Below are positions 1 through 61,504 of a DNA stretch of 64,000 bases, piece after piece; positions within the stretch are counted from its first letter, which is position 1, and the number at the start of each line of letters is the position of its first letter. The notes under the pieces were generated by a model, which saw nothing but the letters and a program-made list of their open reading frames with translations, was not told the DNA's origin and made no database searches. This stretch comes from Squalus acanthias (taxonomy: Eukaryota), in NCBI GenBank assembly GCA_030390025.1, contig JASTWF010000088.1:248001-312000 (forward strand), given 5' to 3'. A program made the position numbers and the translations under genes.

Positions 1-1387
1 CCACAATCCTTTGCGCGGTGGCCTCAAGGGGGTCCACCGGCAGGAAGGTCCCGCCCACGGTGAGCCCCTTCTCGATGGCCAGGGACACCGCCCGCTCCGA
101 CCCCAGGAAGAACACAGCCTTGCCGTACATTTTAGAGGCGGCGACGATGGCTGAAGGGCCGACAACCCCAGCCATGGCTTTAACGCACGCCTCTATAGTC
201 ATGTTGGGGTGAGTGTAGCTCTTGACCCCATTCTTCCTCGTAAGGAGGGTAAAAGGTGACGGGGTAACAGGAGGACTCGTGGCTGCGGCCGTGGCCGCGG
301 CTGCCACGCTCGCATACGTCCTCGCTGCCCCCGCCACCGACGAAGATGTACTCGCCATAATGGAGGGTTCTTTAAGGGCTACACTCACCCCAAGTCACAG
401 GCCTGAAGGTGTTAATGGCCTTGGTTTTTTTTTCCCTGAGCAGAGGGAGCTCTTAAATTGAAGGCACACCTCTCCCTTTAGTTGATTGAATTGGGAGAGG
501 GGCCTTCTCCCCTCTGCTCAATGGGTATTTAATAAAAAGTTAATTGAGGTGCCTCTTAGAGAGAGAGGCAGAGAGAGACAGAGACAAAGAGAGAGAGAGA
601 GGAGGTAGGAAGGAGGGAAGCCGCAAGGGCAGGGTCGCCACTCAGGATGGTGGGTGGGTGGGTGGGTGGGTGTTGGCAGGGGGTGCACTCTCCGATGTAA
701 TAAAAGTCTTTGGTGGTGGTGGTCTTCTGGTGGGGGGAGAAGATGTCTTCACCTGGGACAGCTGGAGATGCCCAGGCTCAGTCCTGCACCAGGTCTTAAC
801 GATGCCCAATTGGATTAAATTAATTGGGGAACTTCACCTAGGCAGCTCCAGCTGTCCCAGGTCAGGCAATGGGAAAGGGGTGTTTAATATGGTGTGTGCG
901 GCCTAGCTTTTACAAAAGCCACACACACACACACACACCCCTTGGATGTTCCGGCCTTCTTCTTTTCTTCTTTCCTCCCCCCACCTACAAAACAAAGTCT
1001 CTGGGAGAGTGCCCCAGAATCACACCCACCTGTAGCTGTTGTTCTTTCCTTCCTCCTCCTTCCAAACAGTTGATGGTTGTTTTGTTGTTTTCTCCCCTCT
1101 CTCCCTCTCCTAAAATGGAGGCCAATTGAGGAGGCAGTGTGGAAAGGCCTCTCCTCTGGTGTTAATGGCCTTGGCCTTTCTTTTCTTATCTTTCTCCTCT
1201 CCTGTCCTCTCTCTCCAGGCACCTCAGTAGTGGTTGTTGGTTGTTGGTGGTGGTCTGCTGCCTGGTCTCCTTCTCCTTCTCCTCTTCCTGCTCACAGAGA
1301 CCACCACTCTGCTGCTGCTGCTCCTTCGTCAGCAGCTCCGAAAGCTTGTGATTTCAAATAAAGCTGTTGGACTATAACCTGGTGTTG
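1..1387 (-). mobile_element. Tx1-clade non-LTR retrotransposon, copy A (5' UTR and start of ORF1; runs off window)
   Basis: 1-540 is near-identical to 7180-7720 (period about 7179 bp). Joined head-to-tail to copy B at AACCTGGTGTTG (1376-1387). Confidence 0.9.
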
Positions 1388-1454
1388 ATCTTTTTGGTTT
1401 GTCAAATCAAAATTTACTGTAAATCAATTAAAACTTTAAATGAAACTTAACAAA

Positions 1455-4400
1455 TCAAATCAAAATTTGGAAGTCCGGGGTGACGATGCACTCCAGTCCC
1501 CGCGGCGCCCACCGGTCACGGAAAAACTCAAGCGTGCCGGCGGACACCGCGTGCTCCATCTCCAGGGCCACCCGGGCGCGAACATGGCCGCGGAAGAGAG
1601 GCAGGCAATCGGGCCGAACGACCCCCTCGACCGCCCGCTGCCTGGACCAATTAATGGCTTTCTTGGCCAGGCCCAGGAGCAGTCCTACGAGGAGGTCCTC
1701 CGACCTACCCGCTCCCCTCCGCACCGGGTGACCGTAGATCAGGAGCGTGGGGCTGAAGTGCAACCAGAAATTGAGGAGCAGCCCCTTCAAATAATGAAAG
1801 AGGGGCTGCAACCTCTCACATTCAACATAAATGTGATAAACGGACTCCTCCAGGCCGCAAAAATGGCAAGCAGCCTGGGAGTCCGTAAACCTACTTAAAA
1901 TCCTATTGCACGGGACTGCTCCGTGCAACACCCTCCAGGCCAAGTCCCCAATAGAACAAGGGAAGACTCCCGCGTAGAGAGCCTTCCAATGGGGACCTTC
2001 GCCTCCGCCGGACGGCAGGATGGTACGCCAAGGCGTGTCCGGACGGCAGACGAAGATGGCAAAGTGGAGAGTGTGCAGGAGCAGCCCGTACAGGAAACGC
2101 CTCCGTGCGGATTGAAAGGGCACGGAGGGCATTTCTCCGAGAAGGCTCAAGTGGTGAGGCGGCGGCTCCCGAGGGAGGATTCGGGGCCGGGCGCCGATAA
2201 GGAATTCCGTCCGAACGGGGGTCAGTTCGGACGGGATCGCCCCACGTGCTTGAGCCTCCTCGACACACCTAGTGGAGACGGGGCCCAGTGCCACTTTTAG
2301 CGACTCGATGGCTTTGACCGCGAGCCGGACGTTGACCCAAGACATGCGCCTCGCCAACTCCTCCGGCGCCATCCAGCCCGCTCCTCCGCCATCGAGCAGG
2401 TCCCCGACTCTGGTCACCTTACCGGGCACAGCCCTGCCCTCCGCCAGCCAGCCGAACCCGCGGTCGTGGTGGTGCGGATTCCTGAACAGCGGCTCCCGAA
2501 GGACGGCCGCCGCTCCTGACGGGGGAGAACTGCGCTCGGAGGCGACGCTGTTCCAAACCCATAGCAGTTCCTGGTAGAAGACAGGCAGCTCCCGCAGGCT
2601 GGCACGCGTGCCACCCACTCTCACAAACAGGAGCTGCGTGTCGTAATTGAGGCCGTGCAGCTGGCGGAAGAAATACGTCGCCAGCGCACGCCACCTAGGA
2701 GGATTCTCCACGTACAGGTATCTCTGCAGCGTCTGAAGACGGAAAGTCGCCGCCTGGGTGCGAAGGCACACCAGCGCCTGACCGCCCTCCCTAAGCGGGA
2801 GACTCAAAACCGCGGCAGAGACCCAGTGCTTCCTTTTGTCCCAGAAGAAGTCGACGAGCTTCTTCTGCATCTTGGCGACAAACGCAGGGGGAGGGATCAA
2901 AGTGATCAACCGGTACCACAACATGGCGGCCACCAGCTGGTTTATGACCAGCGCTCGACCCCTGTAGGACAACACTCGGAGCAGTCCTGTCCAGCGCCCT
3001 AGGCGAGCGGTGACTTTGGCCTCCAGCTCTTGCCAGTTCGCCGGCCAGGCGTCCTCGGCCGGGCTGAGGTAGACTCCCAGGTAGAGGAGGTGCGTGGTGC
3101 TCCAGGCGAAAGGCCCGAACTCCTCCGGCAGGGAGTCCACCCGCCATGGGCCCACCAGGAGTCCAGAACATTTCTCCCAGTTGATCTTGGCGGAGGATGC
3201 GTCCGAGTAAATCTGCTGGCATTCTCGCATCCTCCGCAAGTCGACGGGATCCGTGACCGCGAGGAGCACGTCATCGGCGTAAGCCGAGAGGACCACCTCC
3301 ACGCCCGGCCCTTGCAGAGCCAGTCCCGTCAACCTCTTCCGCAAGAGGCGCAGGAAAGGCTCCACGCAAACGGCGTATAACTGACCGGACATGGGGCATC
3401 CCTGACGCACCCCCCTCCCGAAGCGAAGGGGCGCCGTCAAAGACCCGTTAACTTTAATGAGACACTCCGCGGCGGCGTACAGAAGTCGGATCCGGGCGAC
3501 GAAATGCGTCCCGAACCCGAATGCGCGCAGAGTCCCGAAAAGATACTCGTGATCCACCCTGTCGAACGCCTTCTCCTGATCCAGGGAAAGGAAGGCGACC
3601 GACAGACCAGCCCTCTGGGAATGGTGGACCAGGTCCCGGACCAGATGGATGTTATCGTGGATACTCCGGCCCGGGACCGTGTAGGACTGGTCGGGGTGGA
3701 TCATGCGGGCCAGCACGGTGCCAAGGCGAGCAGACATAGCCCTGGCGAAAATTTTGTAGTCCGTGCTGAGGAGGGAGACCGGGCGCCAGTTCTTAAGTAG
3801 GCGGAGATCGCCCTTCTTGGGCAGCAGGACGATGACCGCCCTGCGCCAAGAGAGGGGCATCTCCCCGGTCGCCAGACTTTCCCCCAGGACCCGCGCGTAG
3901 TCGTCCCCCAAGACGTCCCAGAACGCCCTGTGGAACTCCACGGTCAGCCCGTCCAGCCCCGGGGACTTGCCCCTCGAGAGCTGGCGCAGGGCGCCGGTCA
4001 GCTCCGCCAGGCTTAGCGGAGCTTCTAAATTCTCGGCGCCCTCCGGGCCGACCTTCGGCAGGTCCTCCCACAAAACTCTGCGCGCATCCTCGCTGGACGG
4101 ATCCGAAGAGAACAGAGCCCCGTAATAGGCCCGGGCCTCCGCGCTGATGCCCTCCGGATCCGAGACCAGAGATCCGTCGTCGGCCAGCAGCCCCAAGAGC
4201 TGCTTACGGACCCCCCGTCTTTTTTCCAGCGAGTAGAAGAAGGGGGAGCCGCGGTCCAGGTCCCGCAGGAACTGGATCCGCGACCTCACGTACGCGCCTC
4301 GGGACCCGACCAGCTGCAGGTCCTTCAGCGCGCCCTTCTTCTCTTCGTACACCTTCCGCAGGGCCGGGTCCTCGACGACTTGACCGAGACGGGACTCCAG

Positions 4401-5354
4401 GTCGAGCACTTCTTTCTCCAATCGCCCGACCCGGGCCTCCCGCCTCTTGGTCGACCCCTTCGCGTACTCCTGACAGAAGACGCGGACGTGAGCCTTGCCC
4501 ACGTCCCACCATAGCCTCAAGGAGGGGAAGCCTCCCCGCTTCCTTCTCCAGTCGGCCCAGAACCGGCGAAACGAATCCCGGAACCGCGCGTCCTCCAGCA
4601 GCAGGTTGTTAAAATGCCAGTACGCGGACCCCCCCCGCGCGCGCAGCGGAGCGAGCTCCGCCCACACCAGGTGGTGGTCCGTGCACGGCACCGGCCGCAT
4701 GGAAGCCGCCGGAACGCAGGAGACGTACGCCCGGGAAATGTAAAGGCGGTCGATTCTGGACCTTCCTCCTCCAGACCTCACGCTCGTGAAGGCGCTGGAG
4801 TCGGGATGGAGATTTCGCCAGACGTCCACCAAGTCGAAGGACCCGACCAGGTCCCGCAACTTCTCCATCGCCGCCGGGCTTCGCGGGGGACCCGACCGGT
4901 CCCGCGCCTCGAGGGTACAATTGAAATCCCCCCCGAGGATGACGCACTCGCCCACGTCGATGGAGCCCAGAAGAGCGGACACTTCTCCGAAGAAGCGCAC
5001 TTGCTGCGCACCGGTCCGGGGGGCGTACACGTTCACTAAATGGAGCGGCACGCCTCCCAGGCGAACAGTGACCTGGAGCAAGCGGCCCGGCACGTGCTCC
5101 TTGACCCTCAAGATCTCCGGCTGAAAATGCGGGGCCAGCAAGACAGCCACCCCGCAGGAATTGTTGGAGAGGTGACTCATGCTGACCCCTCCTTGCCACT
5201 CCAGGAGCCACGTGGCCTCGTCTCCCGGAACGGTGTGGGTTTCTTGCAGGAAGCACACCGCATATTTCCCGTCCCGAAGGACCGAGAAGTTATTGAATCT
5301 ACGGCGCGCCTCCCTGCTGCCGTTGATGTTGAGGCTGGCTATGGTTATCTTCAT
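1455..5354 (-). CDS. Tx1 ORF2: AP endonuclease + reverse transcriptase + C-terminal zinc finger (intact, about 1300 aa)
   Basis: Motifs SLNING, LQETH, GGDFN, RIDRLYI and TDHH (APE); KSPGLDG, WRPVSLL, DQEKAFD, GVRQGCPMS and AYADD (RT); CHFC...H..VEC at the C-terminus. Confidence 0.93.
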   Translation of the reverse strand: MKITIASLNINGSREARRRFNNFSVLRDGKYAVCFLQETHTVPGDEATWLLEWQGGVSMSHLSNNSCGVAVLLAPHFQPEILRVKEHVPGRLLQVTVRLGGVPLHLVNVYAPRTGAQQVRFFGEVSALLGSIDVGECVILGGDFNCTLEARDRSGPPRSPAAMEKLRDLVGSFDLVDVWRNLHPDSSAFTSVRSGGGRSRIDRLYISRAYVSCVPAASMRPVPCTDHHLVWAELAPLRARGGSAYWHFNNLLLEDARFRDSFRRFWADWRRKRGGFPSLRLWWDVGKAHVRVFCQEYAKGSTKRREARVGRLEKEVLDLESRLGQVVEDPALRKVYEEKKGALKDLQLVGSRGAYVRSRIQFLRDLDRGSPFFYSLEKRRGVRKQLLGLLADDGSLVSDPEGISAEARAYYGALFSSDPSSEDARRVLWEDLPKVGPEGAENLEAPLSLAELTGALRQLSRGKSPGLDGLTVEFHRAFWDVLGDDYARVLGESLATGEMPLSWRRAVIVLLPKKGDLRLLKNWRPVSLLSTDYKIFARAMSARLGTVLARMIHPDQSYTVPGRSIHDNIHLVRDLVHHSQRAGLSVAFLSLDQEKAFDRVDHEYLFGTLRAFGFGTHFVARIRLLYAAAECLIKVNGSLTAPLRFGRGVRQGCPMSGQLYAVCVEPFLRLLRKRLTGLALQGPGVEVVLSAYADDVLLAVTDPVDLRRMRECQQIYSDASSAKINWEKCSGLLVGPWRVDSLPEEFGPFAWSTTHLLYLGVYLSPAEDAWPANWQELEAKVTARLGRWTGLLRVLSYRGRALVINQLVAAMLWYRLITLIPPPAFVAKMQKKLVDFFWDKRKHWVSAAVLSLPLREGGQALVCLRTQAATFRLQTLQRYLYVENPPRWRALATYFFRQLHGLNYDTQLLFVRVGGTRASLRELPVFYQELLWVWNSVASERSSPPSGAAAVLREPLFRNPHHHDRGFGWLAEGRAVPGKVTRVGDLLDGGGAGWMAPEELARRMSWVNVRLAVKAIESLKVALGPVSTRCVEEAQARGAIPSELTPVRTEFLIGARPRILPREPPPHHLSLLGEMPSVPFQSARRRFLYGLLLHTLHFAIFVCRPDTPWRTILPSGGGEGPHWKALYAGVFPCSIGDLAWRVLHGAVPCNRILSRFTDSQAACHFCGLEESVYHIYVECERLQPLFHYLKGLLLNFWLHFSPTLLIYGHPVRRGAGRSEDLLVGLLLGLAKKAINWSRQRAVEGVVRPDCLPLFRGHVRARVALEMEHAVSAGTLEFFRDRWAPRGLECIVTPDFQILI

Positions 5355-5379
5355 CTCAGAAGCATAGTGCAACCTCTAC

Positions 5380-7537
5380 CTAACGGAGGGGAGGGAGGGC
5401 GGTCACTGACGACCGCCACTCCCTCAGCAGCCCAGTGTGGAACGTCTTGAGCCGACGCAGCTCGAGCCGGCCAACGTCCTTGTCCGCGCCCATGATTTTA
5501 ACGGCGGCGCGGACGGACACGACGAGCAGCGTCAGCTCCGACCATTTGTCGAGGGCCAGCCGGATCTTCTTGTGACGACCCTGGCTCATGGCCATAAAAT
5601 CCCGGAGTTCCCCTACGGGGATGAGGGGAGAGTCGGTGAAGGGCACGAGGGCGTCCATCGCCTCGCTGCCGATGGACTCCAAATCGTCCTCGTTGCCCCC
5701 CACCGAGTCCCCGTCCTCCTCCGGGAGGTCGTCACCGGCGGCCAACCCATCCGTCACACAGGGTGCAGCGAACGGCTCGGCCGCACCGGCCGGCCCCGCC
5801 TCCGTCACGATCCCACCCCCAGGATCGGTGGCAGAGGAGTCCACCCTGGGCTCCTTCAGGGGCGCCGGGCCGGGAGGCGGCGGCGGCAGTTCGGGGCCCC
5901 CCCCCCGCCTCAGGCGCCGGGGCGACCGGAGAAACCGGGGAGAAAATAATCCCAAATTCCTCCAGCACGTCCGGCGCCAACAACAGAGACGGAGTCAGGG
6001 GGCTTTCCGTCTCCCCGCCACCAACCTCCGACCCAGCAGGCTGGGGATTGCTACACTCCTCCACCAGGTCGAGCAGTCCCTGGGAGATGTCTGGGTTATA
6101 AAAGGCGGGCTCGGCTTCAGCCTCTTTGGCCTCGCCCGCCCCAGTCCCCAGGACGCCCGACCCGGCGAGGAGCAACGGTTCCGGTACTACATTTCCCTCC
6201 GCGGGTTGTTCCGCGCCCCCCTCCACGGGCAGGGTCTCTTCCCCATCCCCGGGAGGCACAGGTCGGACAGACTCGTCTGTCTCACCCTCCCGAGGGACAG
6301 ACGACCCCTGCCGATCGCGCGCGACGATGACGGTGGTGGGGTGGGGCGCAGCACCCGCGGCGGGCGACTGCCCCCCTTTTGCGGAGGGACCTTCCTCCTC
6401 GCAGTCCTCCTGCTGGGGGCGGAGCTTTCTTTTTAACAAGTTGGGGCCCGGAGAGGGGGAGGCCTCCATGTCTGCTGGGGCCTCCCTCTCTGCCCCCTTC
6501 CGACGACTGGGTTTCTTGGGCCCCTCGGGCCCGAGCCCGGCCGCAGGTCTTAATTCAGCTGCCTCAGCAGTTGCGGTCACGGTCGCGGGCCCGGGCACGA
6601 GGACCCCCCCAGTCTCATGCGTCCCGACCAACTCCGCGATATACTCGGGCGTGAGTTCTGTCAATTCCGATGTTTCCTCCGCGAGGGGATCCGCCCTTAG
6701 GTGTTTAGTTTTCCTACGCGCCTTCCTTCCCCCCGGACGCTCTCCCTCCTCCCCGCCGGAGGCCGTGGTGGTGTTGGCCTCCGATTTCGACCGCGCATCC
6801 GTCGCCGTCGACGCGCGGACAGTATCAGGGGGAGGGGGGGCGGCGGCGCCAACCCCGGCCGCGCCAGGTGTCGTGGCGGCCTTGGAGGCGGGGCAGTTTT
6901 TGCGGACGTGCCCCACCTCCTTACAGGCGTAGCACCGCGCGCCGTCCGAGGTCCAGAAGACGCGGTGGGCGGTCCCCCCGTGGAGCACCGTGAACGCGCC
7001 GTCCGCGTCCTCCTCCCGCGCCAGCCGGACGAAAAGCTGGCGCCGGAAGGAGAAGACGTGCCGAAGGCTGGCTTCCCGGAAGCCGAGCGGGATGGGTGTG
7101 ATCCCCGACCTCACCTCCCCCAGTTGACGTAGGTGGGGGAGGAGGAGCTCACCCGGAACAAAGGGCGGGACGTTGGAAACCACAATCCTTTGCGCGGTGG
7201 CCTCAAGGGGGTCCACCGGCAGGAAGGTCCCGCCCACGGTGAGCCCCTTCTCGATGGCCAGGGACACCGCCCGCTCCGACCCCAGGAAGAACACAGCCTT
7301 GCCGTACATTTTAGAGGCGGCGACGATGGCTGAAGGGCCGACAACCCCAGCCATGGCTTTTACACACGCCTCTATAGTCATGTTGGGGTGAGTGTAGCTC
7401 TTGACCCCATTCTTCCTCGTAAGGAGGGTAAAAGGTGACGGGGTAACAGGAGGACTCGTGGCTGCGGCCGTGGCCGCGGCTGCCACGCTTGCGTACGTCC
7501 TCGCTGCCCCCGCCACCGGCGAAGATGTGGTCGCCAT
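5380..7537 (-). CDS. Tx1 ORF1 (gag-like, CCHC zinc knuckle), with an apparent frameshift in the C10 run at 5897-5906
   Basis: CYACKEVGHVRKNC knuckle and VSNVPPF motif. The probable C-terminal helical segment (LRDFMAMSQGRHKK...) lies in the adjacent frame. Confidence 0.8.
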
Positions 7538-8574
7538 AATGGAGGGTTCTTTAAGGGCTACACTCACCCCAAGTCACAGGCCTGAAGGTGTTAATGGCCT
7601 CGGTTTTTTTTTCCCTGAGCAGAGGGAGCTCTTAAATTGAAGGCACACCTCTCCCTTTAGTTGATTGAATTGGGAGAGGGGCCTTCTCCCCTCTGCTCAA
7701 TGGGTATTTAATAAAATGTTAATTGAGGTGCCTCTTAGAGAGAGAGGCAGAGAGAGACAGAGACAAAGAGAGAGAGAGAGGGGGCAGGAAGGAGGGAAGC
7801 CGCAAGGGCAGGGCCGCCACCCAGGATGGTGGGCGGGTGGGTGCCGGCAGGGGGGTGCACTCTCCGATGTAATAAAAGTCTTTGGTTGTGGTCTTCTGGT
7901 GGGGGGAGAAGACGTCTCCACCTGGGACAGCCGGAGATGCCCAGGCCCAGTCCCGCACCAGGTCCCAACGATGCCCAATAAGATAAAACCAACCGGGGAC
8001 TTCACCTAGGCAGCTCCAGCCGTCCCAGGTCAGGCAATGGGAAAGGGGTGTCCAACATGGTGTGTGCGGCCCAGCCTCCACAGAAGCCACACACACTCAC
8101 ACACACACCCCCTAGATGTTCCGGCCCTCCTCCCCTCCTCCCTCCTCCCCCCACCCACAAAACAAAGTCTCTGGGAGAGTGCACCAGAACCACACCCACC
8201 CGCAGCTGCCGCTCCCCCCCTCCTCCCTCCCTCCAAACAGATGATGGACGTCCCGTTGCCCTCTCCCCTCTCTCCCCCTCCCAAAATGGAGGCCAATCGA
8301 GGAGGCAGTGTGGAAAGGCCTCTCCTCCGGTGCCCGACGGCCCCGGCCTTCCCCTCTCATCTTTCTTTCTCCTCTCCTGTCCTCTCTCTCCAGGCACCCC
8401 AGTTGTTGTGGTCGTTGGTTGTTGGTGGCGGCCCGCCGCCCGGTCTCCCCCTCCCCCTCCTCCTCCCGCCCACAGAGACCACCACTCCGCCGCTGCTGCT
8501 TCAGCTGCTCCTTCGTCAGCAGCTCCGAAAGCCCGCGACCTCAAACAAAGCTGTTGGACAACAACCTGGCGTTG

Positions 8575-8627
8575 TGCGACTTCTCATTTTTGTCCACCCC
8601 AGTCCCACACCGGCATCTCCGCATCAT
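8575..8627 (+). mobile_element. Remnant of Penelope-like terminal sequence (downstream half of the Tx1 target)
   Basis: TGCGACTTCTCATTTTTGTCCA...CCGGCATCTCC.CATCAT matches the reverse complement of about 63358-63402. Confidence 0.85.
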
Positions 8628-11589: not shown

Positions 11590-11946
11590 AGAGGCACTCG
11601 GGCTGAATGACCCACTCCACCCGTCAGCAGCATCTAACCTGGACCTGTGAATGGCCACATTGGCCGGGCCCAGGAGCAGTCCCACAAAGTGATCTCCCGG
11701 CTTGCCCTCCTCCCTCCACACCGGGTGACCAAAGATCAGGAGGGTGGGACTGAAGTGCAGCCAGAAATGGAGGAGCAGCCCCTTCAAATAGTGGAAGAGG
11801 CTGCAACCCCTCACACTCCATATATACATGGAGCACAGACTCCTCCAGGCTGCAGAAAAGGCAGGCGGCCTGGGAGTCCGTGAACCTGCTTAAAACCTTA
11901 TTGTACGGGACTGCTCAGTGCAACACCCTCCAGGCCAATTCCCCAA
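11590..11946 (-). mobile_element. Old degenerate Tx1-family ORF2 C-terminal fragment
   Basis: Translates to LFHYLKGLLLHFWLHFSPTLLIFGHPV, homologous to copy B at about 1600-1950. Confidence 0.8.
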
Positions 11947-12769: not shown

Positions 12770-12782
12770 GTAAGTACCGTCC

Positions 12783-14435
12783 GACCGCAGTTAGACCGGC
12801 TCCGGGGGAGGGAGAGAGACCGGAGTTAGACCGGCTCCAGGGGAGGGAGAGAGACCGGAGTTAGACCGGCTCCGGGGGAGGGAGGGAGCCCGGAGTTAGA
12901 CCGGCTCCGGGGGAGGGAGAGAGACCGGAGTTAGACCGGCTCCGAGGGAGGGAGAGACCGGAGTTAGACCGGCTCCGGGGGAGGGAGAGACCGGAGTTAG
13001 ACCGGCTCCGGGGGAGGGAGAGAGCCCGGAGTTAGACCGGCTCCGGGGGAGGGAGAGAGACCGGAGTTAGACCGGCTCCGGGGGAGGGAGAGAGAGACCG
13101 GAGTTAGACCGGCTCCGAGGGAGGGAGAGACCGGAGTTAGACCGGCTCCGGGGGAGGGAGAGACCGGAGTTAGACCGGCTCCGGGGGAGGGAGAGAGACC
13201 GGAGTTAGACCGGCTCCGCGGGAGGGAGAGACCGGAGTTAGACCGGCTCCGGGGGAGGGAGAGAGACCGGAGTTAGACCGGCTCCGGGGGAGGGAGAGAG
13301 ACCGGAGTTAGACCGGCTCCGGGGGAGGGAGAGAGACCGGAGTTAGACCGGCTCCGCGGGAGGGAGAGACCGGAGTTAGACCGGCTCCGGGGGAGGGAGA
13401 GAGACCGGAGTTAGACCGGCTCCGAGGGAGGGAGAGACCGGAGTTAGACCGGCTCCGGGGGAGGGAGGGAGAGACCGGAGTTAGACCGGCTCCGGGGGAG
13501 GGAGGGAGACCGACCGGAGTTAGACCGGCTCCGGGGGAGGGAGGGAGACCGACCGGAGTTAGACCGGCTCCGGGGGAGGGAGGGAGACCGACCGGAGTTA
13601 GACCGGCTCCGGGGGAGGGAGGGAGAGAGACCGGAGTTAGACCGGCTCCGGGGGAGGGCGAGGGAGAGAGAGAGACCGGAGTTAGACCGGCTCCGGGGGA
13701 GGGCGAGGGAGAGAGAGAGACCGGAGTTAGACCGGCTCCGGGGGAGGGCGAGGGAGAGAGACCGGAGTTAGACCGGCTCCGGGGGAGGGAGGGAGAGAGA
13801 GAGACCGGAGTTAGACCGGCTCCGGGGGAGGGAGGGAGAGACCGGAGTTAGACCGGCTCCGGGGGGGGAGAGACAGAGACCGGAGTTAGACCGGCTCCGG
13901 GGGAGGGAGGGAGAGAGACCGGAGTTAGACCGGCTCCGGGGGAGGGCGAGGGAGAGAGAGAGACCGGAGTTAGACCGGCTCCGGGGGAGGGAGGGAGAGA
14001 CCGGAGTTAGACCGGCTCCGGGGGAGGGAGGGAGAGACCGGAGTTAGACCGGCTCCGAGGGAGAGAGAGAGAGACCGGAGTTAGACCGGCTCCGAGGGAG
14101 GGAGAGACCGGAGTTAGACCGGCTCCGGGGGAGGGAGGGCGAGACCGGAGTTAGACCGGCTCCGGGGGAGGGAGGGCGAGACCGGAGTTAGACCGGCTCC
14201 GGGGGAGGGAGGGCGAGACCGGAGTTAGACCGGCTCCGGGGGAGGGAGGGCGAGACCGGAGTTAGACCGGCTCCGGGGGAGGGAGGGCGAGACCGGAGTT
14301 AGACCGGCTCCGGGGGAGGGAGGGCGAGACCGGAGTTAGACCGGCTCCGGGGGAGGGAGGGCGAGACCGGAGTTAGACCGGCTCCGGGGGAGGGAGGGCG
14401 AGACCGGAGTTAGACCGGCTCCGGGGGCGGGAGGG
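12783..14435. repeat. G-rich minisatellite, about 33-40 bp unit (GACCGGAGTTAGACCGGCTCCGGGGGAGGGAGA), roughly 45-50 copies
   Basis: Directly visible; starts just after the exon 1 donor. Confidence 0.97.
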
Positions 14436-14989
14436 AGGCCGTTGTCTATACGGTCCACTAAGCTCACCATTTTCTATTACCATAGATGTCAATTACAAAG
14501 GCGTCACTTGTAATGTGCGCTGGATATTTCGGGCAGATTCAGCTGATCAATCAGCAGTTCACATCTCGTTAAAGTGCGATTACCTTGAATACTCAATCCC
14601 CGCTACATAGTGTTAGTTTGTACTATCAACACTTTTTACAAGTATGTCTTAAAGTTTGAAGCTGTGTACGCTCTAGTTTACTTTGTTCACTGGCTTGGTA
14701 GCATTATGAATGAGTTTGATGTTTGAAGTTTTGTGATTTAAGTTTTTTTGTTTCGTAAACGAGGTCTTCAACACATCCTACGTATAGATGTGACTTTCTT
14801 ACTTTTTTAAATAGAATGTTAAAGTTGCACAGGATCTGAACTGATTTGACTAATTTCCAGGCCTTGGAGCCAGTCTGATTCCTGCAGTTTGAAGCTGATC
14901 TTAGGCAAGAACTCGAGGGATAGTAATGTGTAGTTCGGTGATGTGAAGGCATTGAGTTGGTTTCTGTATTTCCTCATGCAGCCAACTAG

Positions 14990-18300: not shown

Positions 18301-18904
18301 TCTTTCACCATTCAGTGAAACTGCCAGCGATGTCATTTTAACTCTCTTCCTACTTCACCCTCTAAGATCACCTCTTGCATCTTCTCCTTTCCAGGCTGAA
18401 AATCCCAAGTCTTTCCTCAGAACTCAACCCCCTGACAGTGGATCAGCCTCATGGTTCCTCTTTGCAATGCCCCCAGCACATGACTGTCTCTTGTCTGTGC
18501 CAGAACTTGGGATTAAATCACAATTGTTCCAGGCCCAGCCTAGATCTTCTATAGGTTAGCAGAAACAGGTTTAAACATATTCGCCCAGATCTTGCTGGAG
18601 TGGTGCATCTGAGTGCCCCATTAGACTTTTTCCTGCATTCTTCAGCTCAATTTTTTTGTGCTGCAAATTGTTGGAAGTGCGAGCTAATATCTGGGTGGTG
18701 AGAGCATGGTGCATGGGCTCTCTCTGAATAGCGGGACTAACAGTCTATCTCCTTAACCGATTGACATTTAAGGAGTGAAAGAGATGGGGTGAATTAGTCC
18801 CATTCCAGAGACTTGAGCACAAAAATCTAGGCTGACACTCCAGTATAGTGCTGAGGGAGTGCTGCACTGTCGAGGTGCCATCTTTCAGATGAGGGCTTTG
18901 TGTG

Positions 18905-20987
18905 TTGTGGGTTTGGCGGGGGGCTCAGTGTCATGGGTTTGGCGCGGGGGGGGTGGGCTCAGTGTCATGGGTTTGGCGCGAGGGGGGGTGCGCTCTGTCA
19001 TGGGTTTGGCGCGGGGTGGGGGTGGCTCAGTGTCCTGTGTGCGGGGGGGGGGCTCAGTGTCCTGTGTGTGTGTGGGGGGGTTCAGTGTCCTGTGTGTGTG
19101 GGGGGGTTCAGTGTCCTGTGTGTGTGGGGGGGCTCAGTGTCCTGTGTGTGTGGGGGGGCTCAGTGTCCTGTGTGTGTGGGGGGGCTCAGTGTCCTGTGTG
19201 TGTGGGGGGGCTCAGTGTCCTGTGTGTGTGGGGGGGTGGGGCTCAGTGTCCTGTGTGTGTGGGGGGGGGGCTCAGTGTCCTGTGTGTGGGGGGGGGGGGG
19301 CTCAGTGTCCTGTGTGTGTGGGGGGGGGGGGCTCAGTGTCCTGTGTGTGTGGGGGGGGGGGCTCAGTGTCCTGTGTGTGTGGGGGGGGGGGGCTCAGTGT
19401 CCTGTGTGTGTGGGGGGGGGGGGCTCAGTGTCCTGTGTGTGTGTGGGGGGGGGGGGGGGCTCAGTGTCCTGTGTGTGTGTGGGGGGGGGGGGGGGGGGCT
19501 CAGTGTCCTGTGTGTGTGGGGGGGGGGGCTCAGTGTCCTGTGTGTGTGGGGGGGGGGGGGGCTCAGTGTCCTGTGTGTGGTGGGGGGGGGGGCTCAGTGT
19601 CCTGTGTGTGGGGGGGGCGGGGGGGCTCAGTGTCCTGTGTGTGGGGGGGGGAGGGGCTCAGTGTCCTGTGGTGGGGGGGGGGCTCAGTGTCCTGTGAGTG
19701 GGGGGGGGCCTCAGTGTCCTGTGTGTGTGGGGGGGTGTGGCTCAGTGTCCTGTGTGTGTGTGGGGGGGGGCTCAGTGTCCTGTGTGTGTGTGGGGGGGGG
19801 GGCTCAGTGTCCTGTGTGTGTGTGTGGGGGGGGCTCAGTGTCCTGTGTGGGGGGGGGGTGGGGGGCTCGGTGTCCTGTGCGTGTGTGTGGGGGGGGGTGG
19901 GGGGGCTCGGTGTCCTGTGTGTGTGTGTGGGGGGGGGGGGGGGGGGGCTCAGTGTCCTGTGTGTGTGGGGGGGGGGGCTCAGTGTCCTGTGTGTGGGGGG
20001 GGGGGGGGGGCTCAGTGTCCTGTGTGGGGGGGGGGGTGNNNNNNNNNNNNNNNNNNNNNNNNNNNNNNNNNNNNNNNNNNNNNNNNNNNNNNNNNNNNNN
20101 NNNNNNNNNNNNNNNNNNNNNNNNNNNNNNNNNNNNNNNNNNNNNNNNNNNNNNNNNNNNNNNNNNNNNNNTGTGGGGGGGGGGCTCAGTGTCCTGTGTG
20201 TGGGGGGGGGGGGGGCTCAGTGTCCTGTGTGTGTGGGGGGGGGGGGCTCAGTGTCCTGTGTGTGGGGGGGGGAGGGGCTCAGTGTCCTGTGGTGGGGGGG
20301 GGGGCTCAGTGTCCTGTGAGTGGGGGGGGGCCTCAGTGTCCTGTGTGTGTGGGGGGGTGTGGCTCAGTGTCCTGTGTGTGTGGGGGGGGGGGGGGGCTCA
20401 GTGTCCTGTGTGTGTGTGGGGGGGGGGGGGGGCTCAGTGTCCTGTGTGTGTGTGTGGGGGGGGCTCAGTGTCCTGTGTGTGGGGGGGGGGGGGGCTCAGT
20501 GTCCTGTGTGGGGGGGGGGGTGGGGGGCTCAGTGTCCTGTGTGGGGGGGGGGGGTGGGGGGCTCAGTGTCCTGTGTGGGGGGGGGGGTGGGGGGCTCGGT
20601 GTCGTGTGTGGGGGGGGGGGGGGTGGGGGGCTCGGTGTCCTGTGCGTGTGTGTGGGGGGGGGTGGGGGGGCTCAGTGTCCTGTGTGTGTGGGGGGGGGGG
20701 GGGGCTCAGTGTCCTGTGTGTGTGTGGGGGGGGGGGGGGGCTCAGTGTCCTGTGTGTGTGTGTGGGGGGGGCTCAGTGTCCTGTGTGTGGGGGGGGGGGG
20801 GGGCTCAGTGTCCTGTGTGGGGGGGGGGGTGGGGGGCTCAGTGTCCTGTGTGGGGGGGGGGGTGGGGGGCTCAGTGTCCTGTGTGGGGGGGGGGGTGGGG
20901 GGCTCGGTGTCGTGTGTGGGGGGGGGGGGGGTGGGGGGCTCGGTGTCCTGTGCGTGTGTGTGGGGGGGGGGTGGGGGGGCTCGGTGT

Positions 20988-21027
<40 letters not shown>

Positions 21028-21700
21028 GGGGGGGGGGGGCTCTGTGTCCTGTGTGTGTGGGGGGGGGCTCAGTGTCCTGTGTGTGTGGGTGGGGTGGGGG
21101 GCTCGGTGTCCTGTGTGTGGGGGGGGGGGCTNNNNNNNNNNNNNNNNNNNNNNNNNNNNNNNNNNNNNNNNNNNNNNNNNNNNNNNNNNNNNNNNNNNNN
21201 NNNNNNNNNNNNNNNNNNNNNNNNNNNNNNNNNNNNNNNNNNNNNNNNNNNNNNNNNNNNNNGTGTGGGGGGGGGAGGGGCTCAGTGTCCTGTGGTGGGG
21301 GGGGGGGCTCAGTGTCCTGTGAGTGGGGGGGGGCCTCAGTGTCCTGTGTGTGTGGGGGGGTGTGGCTCAGTGTCCTGTGTGTGGGGGGGGGGGGCTCGGT
21401 GTCCTGTGTGTGGGGGGGGGGGGGCTCGGTGTCCTGTGAGTGGGGGGGGGCCTCAGTGTCCTGTGTGTGTGGGGTGGGGGGCTCGGTGTCCTGTGTGTGG
21501 GGGGGGGGGGCNNNNNNNNNNNNNNNNNNNNNNNNNNNNNNNNNNNNNNNNNNNNNNNNNNNNNNNNNNNNNNNNNNNNNNNNNNNNNNNNNNNNNNNNN
21601 NNNNNNNNNNNNNNNNNNNNNNNNNNNNNNNNNNNNNNNNNNNNNNNNNNNNNNNNNNNNNNTGTGAGGGGGGGGGCTCAGTGTCCTGTGTGTGTGCTTG
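18905..21700. repeat. G/T-rich minisatellite (CTCAGTGTCCTGTGTGTG(G)n) with three assembly gaps
   Basis: Directly visible; N-runs at about 20039-20171, 21132-21262 and 21512-21662. Confidence 0.97.
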
Positions 21701-21760
21701 GGGGTGTGGTTTATGCGGTAGTTTACGGACCCCCCCTCTCTCTCTCTCTCTCTCTCTCAG

Positions 21761-24816: not shown

Positions 24817-24899
24817 ATATTTCAGCTGAGGCCTAACCAGTTATTTAAAGGATTAGCATAACTTTCTTGCTTTTGTACTCTGCCTATAACCTGGTGTTG

Positions 24900-27499
24900 C
24901 TCTTTTTGGTTGACAAATCAAAATTTACTGTAAATCAATTAAAACTTTAAATGAAACTTAATAAATCAAATCAAAATTTGGAAGTCCGGGGTGACGATGC
25001 ACTCCAGCCCCCGCGGCGCCCACCGGTCGCGGAAAAACTCAAGCGTGCCGGCGGACACCGCGTGCTCCATCTCCAGGGCCACCCGGGCGCGAACATGGCC
25101 GCGGAAGAGAGGCAGGCAATCGGGCCGAACGACCCCCTCGACCGCCCGCTGCCTGGACCAATTAATGGCTTTCTTGGCCAGGCCCAGGAGCAGTCCCACG
25201 AGGAGGTCCTCCGACCTACCCGCTCCCCTCCGCACCGGGTGACCGTAGATCAGGAGCGTGGGGCTGAAGTGCAACCAGAAATTGAGGAGCAGCCCCTTCA
25301 AATAATGAAAGAGGGGCTGCAACCTCTCACACTCAATATAAATGTGATAGACGGACTCCTCCAGGCCGCAGAAATGGCAAGCAGCCTGGGAGTCCGTAAA
25401 CCTACTTAAAATCCTATTGCACGGGACTGCTCCGTGCAACACCCTCCAGGCCAAGTCCCCAATAGAACAAGGGAAGACTCTCGCGTAGAGAGCCTTCCAA
25501 TGGGGACCTTCGCCTCCGCCGGACGGCAGGATGGTACGCCAAGGCGTGTCCGGACGGCAGACGAAGATGGCAAAGTGGAGAGTGTGCAGGAGCAGCCCGT
25601 ACAGGAAACGCCTCCGTGCGGATTGAAAGGGCACGGAGGGCATTTCTCCGAGAAGGCTCAAGTGGTGAGGCGGCGGCTCCCGAGGGAGGATTCGGGGCCG
25701 GGCGCCGATAAGGAATTCCGTCCGAACGGGGGTCAGTTCGGACGGGATCGCCCCACGTGCTTGAGCCTCCTCGACACACCTGGTGGAGACGGGGCCCAGT
25801 GCCACTTTTAGCGACTCGATGGCTTTGACCGCGAGCCGGACGTTGACCCAGGACATGCGCCTCGCCAACTCCTCCGGCGCCATCCAGCCCGCTCCTCCGC
25901 CATCGAGCAGGTCCCCGACTCTGGTCACCTTACCGGGCACAGCCCTGCCCTCCGCCAGCCAGCCGAACCCGCGGTCGTGGAGTTGCGGATTCCTGAACAG
26001 CGGCTCCCGAAGGACGGCCGCCGCTCCTGACGGGGGAGAACTGCGCTCGGAGGCGACGCTGTTCCAAACCCATAGCAGTTCCTGGTAGAAGACAGGCAGC
26101 TCCCGCAGGCTGGCACGCGTGCCACCCACTCTCACAAACAGGAGCTGCGTGTCGTAATTGAGGCCGTGCAGCTGGCGGAAGAAATACGTCGCCAGCGCAC
26201 GCCACCTAGGAGGATTCTCCACGTACAGGTATCTCTGCAGCGTCTGAAGACGGAAAGTCGCCGCCTGGGTGCGAAGGCACACCAGCGCCTGACCGCCCCT
26301 CCCTAAGCGGGAGACTCAAAACCGCGGCAGAGACCCAGTGCTTCCTTTTGTCCCAGAAGAAGTCGACGAGCTTCTTCTGCATCTTGGCGACAAACGCAGG
26401 GGGAGGGATCAAAGTGACCAACCGGTACCACAACATGGCGGCCACCAGCTGGTTTATGACCAGCGCTCGACCCCTGTAGGACAACACTCGGAGCAGTCCT
26501 GTCCAGCGCCCTAGGCGAGCGGTGACTTTGGCCTCCAGCTCTTGCCAGTTCGCCGGCCAGGCGTCCTCGGCCGGGCTGAGGTAGACTCCCAGGTAGAGGA
26601 GGTGCGTGGTGCTCCAGGCGAAAGGCCCGAACTCCTCCGGCAGGGAGTCCACCTGCCATGGGCCCACCAGGAGTCCAGAACATTTCTCCCAGTTGATCTT
26701 GGCGGAGGATGCGTCCGAGTAAATCTGCTGGCATTCTCGCATCCTCCGCAAGTCAACGGGATCCGTGACCGCGAGGAGCACGTCATCGGCGTAAGCCGAG
26801 AGGACCACCTCCACACCCGGCCCTTGCAGAGCCAGTCCCGTCAACCTCTTCCGCAAGAGGCGCAGGAAAGGCTCCACGCAAACGGCGTATAACTGACCGG
26901 ACATGGGGCATCCCTGACGCACCCCCCTCCTGAAGCGAAGGGGCGCCGTCAAAGACCCGTTAACTTTAATGAGACACTCCGCGGCGGCGTACAGAAGTCG
27001 GATCCGGGCGACAAAATGCGTCCCGAACCCGAATGCGCGCAGAGTCCCGAAAAGATACTCGTGATCCACCCTGTCGAACGCCTTCTCCTGATCCAGGGAA
27101 AGGAAGGCGACCGACAGACCAGCCCTCTGGGAATGGTGGACCAGGTCCCGGACCAGATGGATGTTATCGTGGATACTCCGGCCCGGGACCGTGTAGGACT
27201 GGTCGGGGTGGATCATGCGGGCCAGCACGGTGCCAAGGCGAGCAGACATAGCCCTGGCGAAAATTTTGTAGTCCGTGCTGAGGAGGGAGACCGGGCGCCA
27301 GTTCTTAAGTAGGCGGAGATCGCCCTTCTTGGGCAGCAGGACGATGACCGCCCTGCGCCAAGAGAGGGGCATCTCCCCGGTCGCCAGACTTTCCCCCAGG
27401 ACCCGCGCGTAGTCGTCCCCCAAGACGTCCCAGAACGCCCTGTGGAACTCCACGGTCAGCCCGTCCAGCCCCGGGGACTTGCCCCTCGAGAGCTGGCGC
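24900..27499 (-). mobile_element. Tx1 copy C, 5'-truncated (RT to 3' end), in intron 3 of MHC IIB
   Basis: Nearly identical to 1388-3988, with one extra C near 26296 causing a frameshift. TSD AACCTGGTGTTG at 24888-24899 and 27500-27511. Confidence 0.93.
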
Positions 27500-27522
27500 A
27501 ACCTGGTGTTGTGCGACTTCTC

Positions 27523-28570
27523 TATTTATAAAGCCAAGGATCCCATATGCGTTTTTTAATAGCCTAATCAACTTGTCCTGCACCTTCAAAGATTTGCGTA
27601 CATACACCTCCAGGTCTCCCTGCGCCCTCTTTAAAATTATACCATCTTTAAAATTATACCATCAGTTCATGTTGCCTCTCCTCGTCTTTGCAAAACTATT
27701 CACTTTACACTTGTTAAATTTTGTCTGCCCATTTCACCAGTCTATGTCCTTCTGAAGTCTGTTACTATGCTCCTCACTGTTTACTGCATTTCCAAACTTT
27801 GTCATCTGCAAACTTTGAAATTATGCCCTGTATACCCAAGTTCAGGTCATTAATACATCAAAGAACAGTAATCCTAATGCTGACCCCTGGGGAACACCAC
27901 TGTATTCTAGCCTCCAGTCTGAAACAACCATTCACCACTACTCTCTGCCATCTGTCCCTTAACCAATTTTGTATCCATGCTGCCACTACCCAATTAATCC
28001 CATGTACTTCAATTTGCTAACAAATCTATTATGTGGTACTTTGTCAAACACCTTTTGCAAGTCTATATACACATCAACTGCACTCAATCAAGTTGGTCAA
28101 ACAATTTGCCTTTAACAAATCCATGCTGGTTGTCATTTATTAATCCATGTTTTTCCAAGTGAATTTATTTTGTCTTGTAGTATTGTCTCCTAAAGTTTCC
28201 CCACCACAGACATTAGGCTGACTGATCTGTAGTTACCTGATTTATTCCCCCTCCTTTCTTTGAACAGGGGTGTAACATTTGCAACCCTCCAGTCCTCTGG
28301 CACCACCCCATATCTAAGGGGATTGGAAGATTGTGACCAGAGCCTCTGCAATTTCCACCCTTGCTTCCTTCAGCAACCTAGGATGCATCCCATACTGACC
28401 GGGTGACCTTTCTACTTTGAAGACTGGCAACCTTTAAGTACCTCCTCTTGATCTATTCTTGTATTACCCAATTTCTCTACTGCCTCCTCCCTTACTGCTA
28501 CATTGGCAGCATCCTCTTTAGTGAAGACGGATTCAAAGTACTCATTTAGTACTTTGGCCATGCCCTCTGC
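27523..28570 (-). mobile_element. Degenerate CR1 LINE (continues 24075-24884; more at about 29110-29810)
   Basis: RT-like remnants (reverse complement of KFADD, GVPQGS, DLQKVFDKVPH); sequence is contiguous across the Tx1 and MITE insertions. Confidence 0.75.
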
Positions 28571-34164: not shown

Positions 34165-37145
34165 CCTAATCATACCTATGGTCTGGGTGCGAAGCATCAG
34201 CTGTTACCTGAGACCCCATGTATGCAGGTAATACCACCAAGGGGCAGTATGTAGATGAGAAATAGGAGGAGGCCAAGGATATATCCAGGGGATTTGGGGG
34301 TGGGTGGGAAGAGCAGCCATTGCTGGAGAGGCTCTGCCAGGGCAGGTAAGTTTTGATGAGCTGAAGTTTGAGGGGTGGGGGTGGAGGATGGGATGGTAGC
34401 CAGGAGAATACTGGAATAGTCGAATCTGGAGGTAACACAAGCATGAATGAGGGTTTCAGTGGTAGATGGGATGAAGTAGGGGTGCAAGCAGGCATTGTTG
34501 TGGAGGTAAGCAGTCTTTGTGATGGAGGGAAAATGGGGTCAGAAGCTCAGCTCAGGGTCAAATCGAACGCCCTGGTCACAAACAGCCTGGTTCAACCTGA
34601 GACGGGCCAGGGAGAGGGATGGAATCAGTGACAAGGGTTCAGAGATTTTGGTCTTCCCAATATTTAGCAGGAGGAAATTGCTGCTGATCCAAGACTGGAT
34701 GTTCGACAAGCAGTGTGACAACAAATAAACAGAGGCAGTGGAGGTTGAGAGATGTGTCGGTGAGGTAGATCTGGGTCTCGTCAGTGTATATGTTGAAGTT
34801 GGCCCCATTCCTGCAGATGATGTAGATAAGGAAGACAGGGTGAAGGATGCATTCTTGAGGCAACCGTGGGGACATGAAAAATAAGCCATTGCTGAAGATT
34901 CTTTAGCTTTGATCAGATAGGCAAGAGTGGAACTAAGTGAGGGCAGTCCAACTGAGCTGGACAGCGGAGGGGAGGCATTGAATTAAGATGGTTTAGTTAA
35001 TTATGTCATAGGCTAAAGAGAGGTTGAGGAGGGATAGTGCACCCTGGTCATAGGCAAGAGGATGCCATTTATGAATTTGGTAAGGGCTGTTTCAATGCTA
35101 TGACAAGGGTGAAAATCTGATTGGACGGATTCAAACATGGAGCTGCAGGAAAGATGGGAATGGATTTGAGCGGCGACCACACACGCAAGGACTTGAGAGG
35201 AAAGGGAGGTTGGAGATGGGTCAGTAGTTTGCAGCAGGGTCAAGGGTGTATTTTTTGAAGAGTGGGGGTGATAATGGCACATTTGAAGGGAAGGGGGACA
35301 GTACCTGAGGGGAGAAAGCCATTAACAATATCAGCTAACATAGGGGTCAGGAAGGGAAGTTGGGTGGTCAGCAGTTTAGAAACATAGAAACATAGAATCT
35401 AGGAGCAGGAGTAGGCCATTCGGCCCGTCGAGCCTGCTCCACCATTCAATACGATCATGGCTGATCATCCAAATCCAGTACCCTGTCCCTGCTTTAATCC
35501 CCACAGTACACATATCCCACCCTACCCCTGTAACCCCACGTATTTAATTCCCCCTAACATATCCCATCCTATCCCCATAACCCCACATATTTAATCCCCC
35601 CCTAACACTAAGGGTCAATTTATCATAGCCAAATCAACCTAACCCGCACATTTTTGGACTGTGGGAGGAAACCGGAGCACCCGGAGGAAACCCACGCAGA
35701 CACGGGGAGAATGTGCAAACTCCACACAGACAGTCACCCGAGGTCAGATTCGAACCCGGGTCTCTGGCGCTGTGAGGCACCAGTGCTAACCACTATGCCA
35801 CCGTGCTGTGTTTAGTAGGAATGGGGTCAAGGGAGCAGGAGGTGGGTTTCTTGGACAAGATAAACTTGGAGAGGACAGGAGGGGAGATAGAGAAACTAAA
35901 GAAAGATGAAAGAGCCTGGGGGAGGTTTGGCCGGGTGAGCTAGGGGAAGGGAGGAAAGCAGCAGACGCAGCTGAATGGATGGTCTCAATCTTGGTGACAA
36001 AGAAGTCCATGAGCTCCTCTCACTTGTTGTTGGAGATGAGGGTGGAGTGAACAGGGCAGAGGAGTTTAAAGAGATATTTTGTGGTGGAGAAATGTAGTTG
36101 ATGGTTATCTTTGCTCTCCAGGATAGTGAGCAGTTCTGGCTTAGGGGAGAGAGGCCCGATAGTATGCGATGTGGTCCAGCCAGATCTGGTGGTGATGGTT
36201 AAACCAGTTGTGTGCCAGGTATGCTGAAATGTGTGACCATAGACTTGAGCGAACAAAGATCAGGGTTGGGAGAGAGTAAAGGTTTCACTGGGGGACGAGG
36301 GCATTAAAGGTGTAGGTGAGGGAGTGGTTAGACAGAATGACAGCTGCAGAACTATCATGATGAAAAGAGGGCTACAGGCTAGACAGTTGGTAGATTGTAA
36401 GTGATTTGGGGGAAAGCTTTTTCCAGGGATAGATGTAGAAGGAAGTGGGTTGGCAGAGGTGAGTAGTGAGGGATATAAGGAAGTGGTCAGAGATGGCCTC
36501 ATCTATGGGAGTAGAGAGGCCAGTGGAGATGGCAACTTCAAGAGGGTGGCTGTGAATATGGGTAGGAGAGTTTATATGGAGGGAGAGATTAAGGGTGGAC
36601 AGGAGGTCAGTGAACTCAGGAGGGAGAGCAGGGTGAGTGGAGATGGAGGTTGAATTCACTGAGGATGAGGAGTCATTCAGTGCAGAGGCTGTGGGAGGCA
36701 AGGATTGAGGATACCTTGGTGAGAAACTCGAGGAGGGGCTGGGGGGGTGGTCGACAGCGAGGACTTTAAAGCAGAGGTGGAACAAGATGACGTGCTCGAA
36801 GGAGAAGAAGGTATCAGAGGAGTAGAGGAAAGACAAGTGTGACTTGGTGATAAGGGCCACACCGCCACTGTGGCGGTCTGGGCGGGGCAGGTGGTGGAAG
36901 GTATAGTCCGGCAGGGAGGCTTCATTAAGGGGGAAGGTGTGGTCACCCGTGAGCCAAGTTTCTGTCAAGGCCATGATGTCGATGCAATCATCCACAATAC
37001 GGTCCTGGATGGCAAGGGCCTTGTTCACAGGTGAATGGACTTTCTGGAGGGAGATACGGAGAGGGGCGGTGATTGTTAATCCACGGGCAGAGGCAAGGGT
37101 GAGTTGGGTAAGCAGGACAGGAGAAGGTCATTGAGGATAGCCCCT
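34165..37145 (-). mobile_element. Degenerate L2-clade-like LINE
   Basis: MALTETWL and GGVALI (APE), FHPCHSIETAL, LIHACVTSRFDYS remnants. Confidence 0.75.
35379..35809 (-). mobile_element. HE1/V-SINE-type tRNA SINE
   Basis: tRNA head with GTTCGAAT B box, central GGGTTTCCTCCGGGTGCTCCGGTTTCCTCCC domain and CR1-derived tail; near-identical to 43426-43824. Confidence 0.8.
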
Positions 37146-61448: not shown

Positions 61449-61504
61449 TGTCCGCTGCGTAGCTCTATGGTCACACACTGAGCCCAATGTCCTACCTACT
61501 GATG

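Follow-up and report, generated by a model that had tools for sequence, protein, structure and literature searches.

The least understood step of target-primed reverse transcription is the one in which the LINE 5′ end is joined and the second strand completed (PMC3774820, PMC2718515; here and below, statements on published systems refer to the available parts of the cited sources). In crocodilians, Tx1-Mar families insert into other transposons with a fixed orientation, SINEU-3 is found in tandems around a target site duplication (TSD), and the 5′ end of one SINEU-2 subfamily is extended by target-like sequence (PMC4494074). In earwig R2, every 5′ junction carries 22 bp of 28S sequence from downstream of the target; annealing of cDNA to target has been proposed to yield the uniform 5′ junctions of R2, whose 5′ end is made by an HDV-like ribozyme (PMC3774820). 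Drosophila R1 forms head-to-tail copies separated by the TSD, each later copy having inserted into the TSD that borders its predecessor on the 5′ side; the ancestral R1 RNA has been proposed to hold little or no target sequence at its 5′ end, and R1 junctions vary (PMC2718515). L1 cDNA can copy nearby DNA, which is rare (22 instances) and typically involves less than 250 bp (10.1101/2024.08.27.596794). Finally, Penelope-like elements typically have a tail of 30-40 bp and, beside the pLTR, a truncated copy in inverted orientation (PMC8557442, PMC11167929); their pLTR hammerhead and the tail have been described (PMC11167929).

The element, its copies and its target

The window, that is, the whole stretch of 64,000 nucleotides analysed here, lies at C3751:248001-312000 within the 3.7-Gb genome that was searched. 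Three Tx1 copies, all on the minus strand, stand out in it: the 5′ part of copy 1 (1-1387, with the start of ORF1 at 358 and the 5′ UTR), which runs on leftward beyond the window; the full-length copy 2 of 7187 nt (1388-8574), inserted at the head of copy 1; and a 5′-truncated copy with a 12-bp TSD (24900-27499, within 24888-27511), which has a target stub of only some 25 bp around it. The array formed by the first two extends past the left edge of the window; it has three full units, and a fourth enters N. ORF2 of copy 2 (1455-5375, minus strand) encodes AP endonuclease, RT and zf-RVT domains, of which the first two were found by Pfam as PF03372 and PF00078, and its closest named full-length relative is ORF2 of Xenopus Tx1L (50% identity over 99% of ORF2). 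Partial ORF2 matches reach 75% in horn shark and 69% in ray, and protein relatives of the element occur in sturgeon and turtle as well. ORF1 of copy 2 (5732-7537, minus strand) has a CCHC zinc knuckle, a weak match at the Pfam cut-off (PF00098, 20.9 bits against 20.8). By these features of its sequence, and by its target specificity with TSD, the element is a LINE of the Tx1 clade. About 900 young copies are present in the genome, and ORF2 is open in 47 of 94 sampled copies.

The Tx1 insertions lie antisense at one site of a repeat that we take to be Penelope-like, a name that goes back to the first-pass annotation and to structural marks of such elements, namely a pLTR hammerhead, an inverted truncated copy and a tail. 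An empty target with an intact minimal hammerhead remains at 63358-63475 (minus strand), and the remaining target with its tail flanks the 5′ end of the array at 8575-8627 (plus strand). The hammerhead at 63437-63475 (minus strand) is a prediction from fold and motifs: stems I and II form and both core motifs are present, and an Rfam search gave no hammerhead report at that position. A 17-nt target motif occurs three times in the window, against 0.18 expected. Pattern searches of the genome gave 883 exact target junctions against 1105 3′-end motifs, and 72,885 exact empty targets; filled targets number about 636, or 0.9%, as a rough estimate from exact patterns.

Some of these targets are palindromic, and the first 100 junctions listed include 4 cases of a Penelope palindrome occupied on both arms; they make up 8 of 72 free-site junctions, against about 0.9% filling in general. 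The tail-to-tail Tx1 pairs lie at C2:164562553/164562679, C2:164776948/164777074, C4:43982377/43983235 and C4:152277727/152277813. The partners on the two arms differ in 5′ class, and it thus appears that some target loci are simply hot for insertion.

Several further observations touch on the target and on the rest of the window. The stub that holds the truncated copy lies inside an element presumed to be CR1-like (24880-27525) and bounds the size of the target. Two off-target insertions, L266 (C2:47.92 Mb) and L320 (C2:150.18 Mb), keep 7-13 nt of target likeness beside the nick, which offers a lead to the endonuclease motif. At the 3′ junctions, the final base of the TSD-like part is often C where the target has G; this base is therefore likely supplied by the element RNA, and the nick may lie one base earlier. 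A 355-bp piece at 11592-11946, about 80% identical to the Tx1 3′ region, derives from a sister family or an older one. Open frames occur in three tandem repeat arrays, at 12781-14441, 18893-21709 and 58959-61456, the last with an 81-bp period. A 400-bp direct repeat (35379-35778 and 43425-43824, 98.75% identity, 8 kb apart) encloses an endonuclease-like frame at 36372-37127, and the two repeat copies are possibly LTRs of one element.

Target-derived heads and their likely passage through RNA

Both 5′ ends in the window bear about 55 nt of Penelope-like target up to the cut, as the first-pass annotation had claimed. In copy 1, this target-derived head occupies 1333-1387 (minus strand, antisense to the repeat), its last 12-15 nt correspond to the TSD, and it is 90.6% identical over 53 nt to 63401-63453; copy 2 has its counterpart at 8504-8574 (minus strand). 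The piece had been placed upstream of the cut; it is present, but in element orientation it lies downstream of the nick. It is indeed far longer than the 12-bp TSD of the truncated copy. Nor is it a one-off junction that was later duplicated: the flipped junction described below has 245 exact matches genome-wide (of the first 100, 96 lie on this Tx1 and 4 on Penelope only), and the 5′ UTR motif adjoining it has 912.

The head is both widespread and variable in length, since full-length Tx1 copies start with 16-55 nt of Penelope-like target, and target sequence is carried by 29 of 30 unselected 5′ ends. A long TSD was considered as its source and rejected. In 25 of 41 copies with a Penelope-like 3′ flank, head and flank disagree within 50 nt, mostly at recurring subfamily-diagnostic sites and, in 7 copies, within the first 15 nt; the head is thus the element's own. 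The TSDs themselves, as read on truncated copies, measure 12-15 bp. Among shortened copies, L245 and L325 show the same 240-nt 5′ truncation at two loci, either a short non-autonomous family or a recurrent stop, and L327, L076, L149 and L138 are internally deleted with both ends kept, one of them being only about 130 nt long.

Next to the head, both 5′ ends carry the 13-nt reverse complement of the hammerhead 5′ half that had been reported for them (1320-1332 in copy 1, minus strand; it equals the hammerhead 5′ half on the element sense strand). This flip is one among several junction variants. The 30 unselected 5′ ends comprise 5 with the exact flip, 4 with a core-breaking variant, 3 with near variants, and 18 from which it is absent, these last having a head of about 52 nt (5), one of about 40 nt of two kinds (9), or belonging to a short class (4) with 16-17 nt of target and no hammerhead piece, one of whose four members has lost the TSD part. 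Counted from the listing, the first 100 of 494 flip-like junctions include 55 with the hammerhead sequence and 43 with the core-breaking variant, and some copies of the family in contigs of two other organisms have the core-breaking variant, too. Nine of the flipped bases already exist in the UTR of the short class.

It had been suggested that the inversion arose by capture through fold-back or template switching and that it would disable the ribozyme. The second point turns out to be beside the matter, given that Tx1 mRNA holds the hammerhead 3′ half in antisense. As to the first, the flip is only one variant, and it matches a junction that Penelope makes without Tx1 (2807 matches to fold-backs at the hammerhead, some palindromes being counted twice). 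Either Tx1 took in a Penelope fold-back junction or a chance likeness was completed by recombination; the flipped half would be a by-product of recombination with such junctions, aided by the 9-nt match native to the UTR. It is dispensable and without needed function, and we regard it as the least important part of the finding. A hammerhead ribozyme in the Tx1 head was rejected, because neither strand shows the fold or paired core motifs in the same test that finds 63437-63475, and neither Rfam nor a crude loop motif revealed an HDV-like ribozyme at the 5′ junction. When the 5′ classes were ordered by UTR distance, no signal emerged: distances between classes were mostly 0.03-0.04, and those of the flipped class, with edited copies included, 0.05-0.07. 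Apart from Tx1, the fold-back junctions of Penelope number in the thousands, their centres lying no more than about 25 nt from the hammerhead 5′ side (L180-L209), and they constitute a large data set on how such elements make inverted ends.

A natural marker of the RNA is provided by the 5′ UTR of copy 2 (7785-8570, minus strand). Compared with copy 1 on the plus strand, copy 2 shows 86 T>C changes and 1 C>T; compared with an unedited sibling on the sense strand, it shows 89 A>G changes at nucleotides 5-790, and 5 in the last 5.7 kb. The preference of ADAR for the 5′ neighbour follows the order U, A, C, G; here, the edited fraction is 13/18 after U (0.72), 35/61 after A (0.57), 23/70 after C (0.33) and 12/70 after G (0.17). 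By this pattern, the changes appear to be ADAR-type hyper-editing, and the head of copy 2 is edited, too. Only three edited genomic copies were found; in the second, L089 (C5:114.06 Mb), 7 of 18 A in the first 60 nt are changed to G, and the third, L274 (C1560), has 76 A>G-type changes, none of them clear in the first 73 nt. Because editing acts on RNA and reaches into the head, the head including its TSD-like part was likely present in Tx1 RNA and reverse-transcribed. Among the listed pieces of four sequencing runs, none crosses the Tx1 5′ junction, and the open-access literature, at listing level, yielded nothing on edited genomic LINE copies.

As to the partner strand, an internal hairpin was rejected as the ADAR substrate, the longest inverted repeat of the UTR (26 nt) being too short for 790 nt. 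In the window copy as in L274, the edited stretch covers roughly the first 800 nt of the 5′ UTR, which suggests an antisense transcript starting near nucleotide 800. Editing in L089 stays within the head, a segment antisense to the abundant Penelope-like repeat.

Stepwise growth of arrays on the 5′ side

Tandem and solo copies, which the first-pass annotation had proposed to count, are about equally frequent: of 91 5′ ends on C1-C4, 46 are solo and 45 stand in 15 arrays of 2-6 units, these being lower bounds because exact motifs were used. As in R1-type tandem arrays, the units are separated by target sequence and are added on the 5′ side. The annotation had further proposed a self-regenerating site, with the 55-nt head and the flipped half as a dedicated target-rebuilding device that drives the arrays. 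The target sequence on 29 of 30 unselected 5′ ends and the growth on the 5′ side agree with it, and the segment is element-borne and the arrays are real; that the 55-nt segment regenerates the site is, however, not supported. Among the first 100 junctions listed, 42 of 96 of the flipped class are filled, that is, have another Tx1 3′ end directly upstream, and the short class is filled as often (36/93 from the listing, p 0.55). Moreover, truncated copies with 12-15-bp TSDs form tandems and off-target copies stack as well, which together with the filling of the short class indicates that the head does not make the arrays. With the flip missing from 18 of the 30 heads and broken in its core in 43 of the first 100 flip-like junctions, a dedicated device seems to us very improbable. 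The numbers, too, ask for more than a rebuilt site: a junction on a Tx1 5′ end is about 45 times as likely to be filled as a free target, and observed filling is about 40% where a rebuilt site predicts about 1%. Target rebuilding alone is thus insufficient.

What else takes place was sought in 94 full-length copies extracted from 119 stretches, a sample enriched for the flipped class. Shared tracts were scored in 34 of 35 adjacent pairs, two hyper-edited copies being left out; the thresholds came from 4122 non-neighbour pairs, whose 99th percentile is 158 nt for 5′ tracts and 1755 nt for 3′ tracts. The 5′ tract exceeds its threshold in 22 of the 34 pairs and the 3′ tract in 1 (Fisher p 5e-8, which overstates the contrast since the thresholds differ and pairs within an array are not independent). 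The first 129 nt are identical in 18 of 34 adjacent pairs, against 0.36% of non-neighbours, and five adjacent pairs have more than 2500 nt in common from the 5′ end. Adjacent units differ at 6-81 diagnostic sites; one upstream copy nevertheless shows zero diagnostic differences from its neighbour over 6703 nt, followed by a new 3′ end. The same polarity is seen, and more clearly, in truncated arrays, each of which has one truncation point and different 3′ ends (6 units of 486 nt, 3 of 955, 2 of 987, 2 of 165 and 4 of 2260; a 2 x 240-nt pair at L245 was excluded, as its truncation point recurs at L325). Their junctions are mostly private, the 4 x 2260 array lies at a non-Penelope site, and their 3′ ends belong to different genome-wide end types, up to four under one private junction. 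In the 987-nt pair, all 18 differing columns fall in the 3′ 480 nt.

Private changes tell the order in which the units arrived. In 13 of 14 arrays, the 3′-most copy exceeds its neighbour in the number of such changes, and in no array does it have fewer; with all 34 pairs taken together, the figures are 19 against 8 (p 0.052). The medians are 2 for copies seated on another one, 9 at the base of an array and 14 for solo copies. By this record, units were added singly, each on the 5′ side. An array could conceivably also form in one burst, if a finished cDNA ended in primer sequence and the RT moved straight on to a further RNA. By construction, a full-length cDNA does terminate in the primer end, and R2 proteins make longer products by template jumping, in head-to-tail repeats (PMC11371274). 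However, independent RNAs would not repeat one truncation point, and the ages of the units differ as the medians show, so that we give such bursts very little credence.

A stronger rival is re-insertion into the TSD, as in Drosophila R1, at a few accessible sites, followed by gene conversion or unequal crossing-over, with no switch at the time of integration. Any TSD regenerates the site, as truncated copies show here and as is known from R1 (PMC2718515), the doubly filled palindromes with partners of different 5′ class attest to hot loci, and one four-unit array of the form X-Y-X-Z fits unequal exchange. Misaligned exchange, on the other hand, should give equal sharing at the 5′ and 3′ ends, and not 22 against 1 of 34, and it offers no account of truncated units that repeat a private junction under up to four 3′ types. 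We therefore deem this explanation unlikely as a whole; hot sites probably contribute to the excess of tandems alongside copying from the neighbour, and not in its place. That the sharing, or the tandem itself, is an artefact of assembly or polishing is scarcely credible: the units are about 99% alike and the arrays were read from the assembly, but they occur at many loci on chromosome-size contigs, adjacent units differ at those 6-81 diagnostic sites, an edited copy stands beside an unedited one, the 165-nt pair spans less than 400 bp, and an artefact would not be polar.

A new cDNA thus likely finishes by switching to the resident copy. This reading has its counter-cases, however: 12 of 34 neighbours lack a long shared 5′ tract; the head of window copy 2 came from RNA and not from its neighbour; one truncated tandem pair has different truncation points (344 and 318); three units of the 4 x 2260 array have one 3′ type, so that plain duplication could explain them; and unequal crossing-over fits the X-Y-X-Z array as well.

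Probable integration by homology downstream of the nick

Taken together, we consider it probable that this Tx1 LINE, inserting antisense at one Penelope-like site and carrying a head of 16-55 nt, completes its integration by pairing of the cDNA with matching DNA just downstream of the nick. The series opens with site-specific insertion, for which the 12-15-bp TSDs on truncated copies provide the record, and goes on with a head that travels with the element in DNA and would be present in its RNA. At an empty target, the cDNA end would then anneal to the target top strand and give precise, mostly full-length insertions. Most copies of typical LINEs are truncated. Homology at an empty site would be available to full-length cDNA alone, by way of its head, and this would account for the fact that at least 46 of 72 insertions at free sites are full length. 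Beside a resident copy, in turn, any cDNA would have homology; it could switch onto that copy at the homologous position and copy back to the junction, and the resulting unit would join a new 3′ end to the 5′ end of its neighbour, which is the pattern found in the arrays. The switch falls within the first 600 nt in most full-length tandem copies, and the 45-fold excess must therefore have more behind it than the rescue of short cDNAs. Private changes mark the outcome as the gain of one unit at a time on the 5′ side, and window copy 2 would represent an alternative route, in which the head was taken from RNA to the end. In more general terms, we incline, with moderate confidence, to the view that here a LINE completes integration mainly by homology downstream of the nick, that target sequence has repeatedly been captured as a 5′ landing handle, and that a resident copy serves as template for the rest. 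If true, the arrays are chains of RNA/DNA mosaics and the family recombines at every jump.

The wider interest of the locus is that about 900 young copies record the joining step through natural markers, namely edited RNA heads, subfamily-tagged 3′ ends and private junctions. These markers speak for a joining route through homology downstream of the nick. Such a rule is directly testable and bears on full-length site-specific insertion by RNA-templated tools. A search of the open-access literature returned nothing on this Tx1 element or on neighbour-copied tandem units. In the available parts of the sources, each ingredient has precedent: transposon targeting, TSD stacking, carriage of target sequence at the 5′ end, cDNA copying of nearby DNA, and template jumping.

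R2 has a restriction-like endonuclease, and its 5′ end is made by an HDV-like ribozyme, whereas Rfam and a crude loop motif found none in this Tx1 head. Like our element, earwig R2 bears target sequence from downstream at its 5′ end, and the RNA of other R2 elements, too, begins with 28S sequence (PMC3774820). Our element belongs to the Tx1 clade as do Xenopus Tx1L and the crocodilian Tx1-Mar families; it shares transposon targeting with Tx1-Mar, tandems with SINEU-3 and target-like sequence at the 5′ end with one SINEU-2 subfamily (PMC4494074). It differs from Tx1-Mar and SINEU in that its target is a Penelope-like pLTR and that nearly all full-length copies carry a head from downstream of the nick; neighbour-copied 5′ ends are not described in the available part of that source (PMC4494074). 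As in Penelope-like elements, the target repeat has an inverted copy and a tail, whereas the Tx1 head is a mere fragment that cannot form the ribozyme (PMC8557442, PMC11167929). Head-to-tail stacking through the TSD is common to this element and Drosophila R1, for which the available account does not describe truncated units of equal length with different 3′ ends (PMC2718515). Compared with the templated insertions of L1, finally, the Tx1 route looks routine and copies up to 6.7 kb of the element itself (10.1101/2024.08.27.596794).
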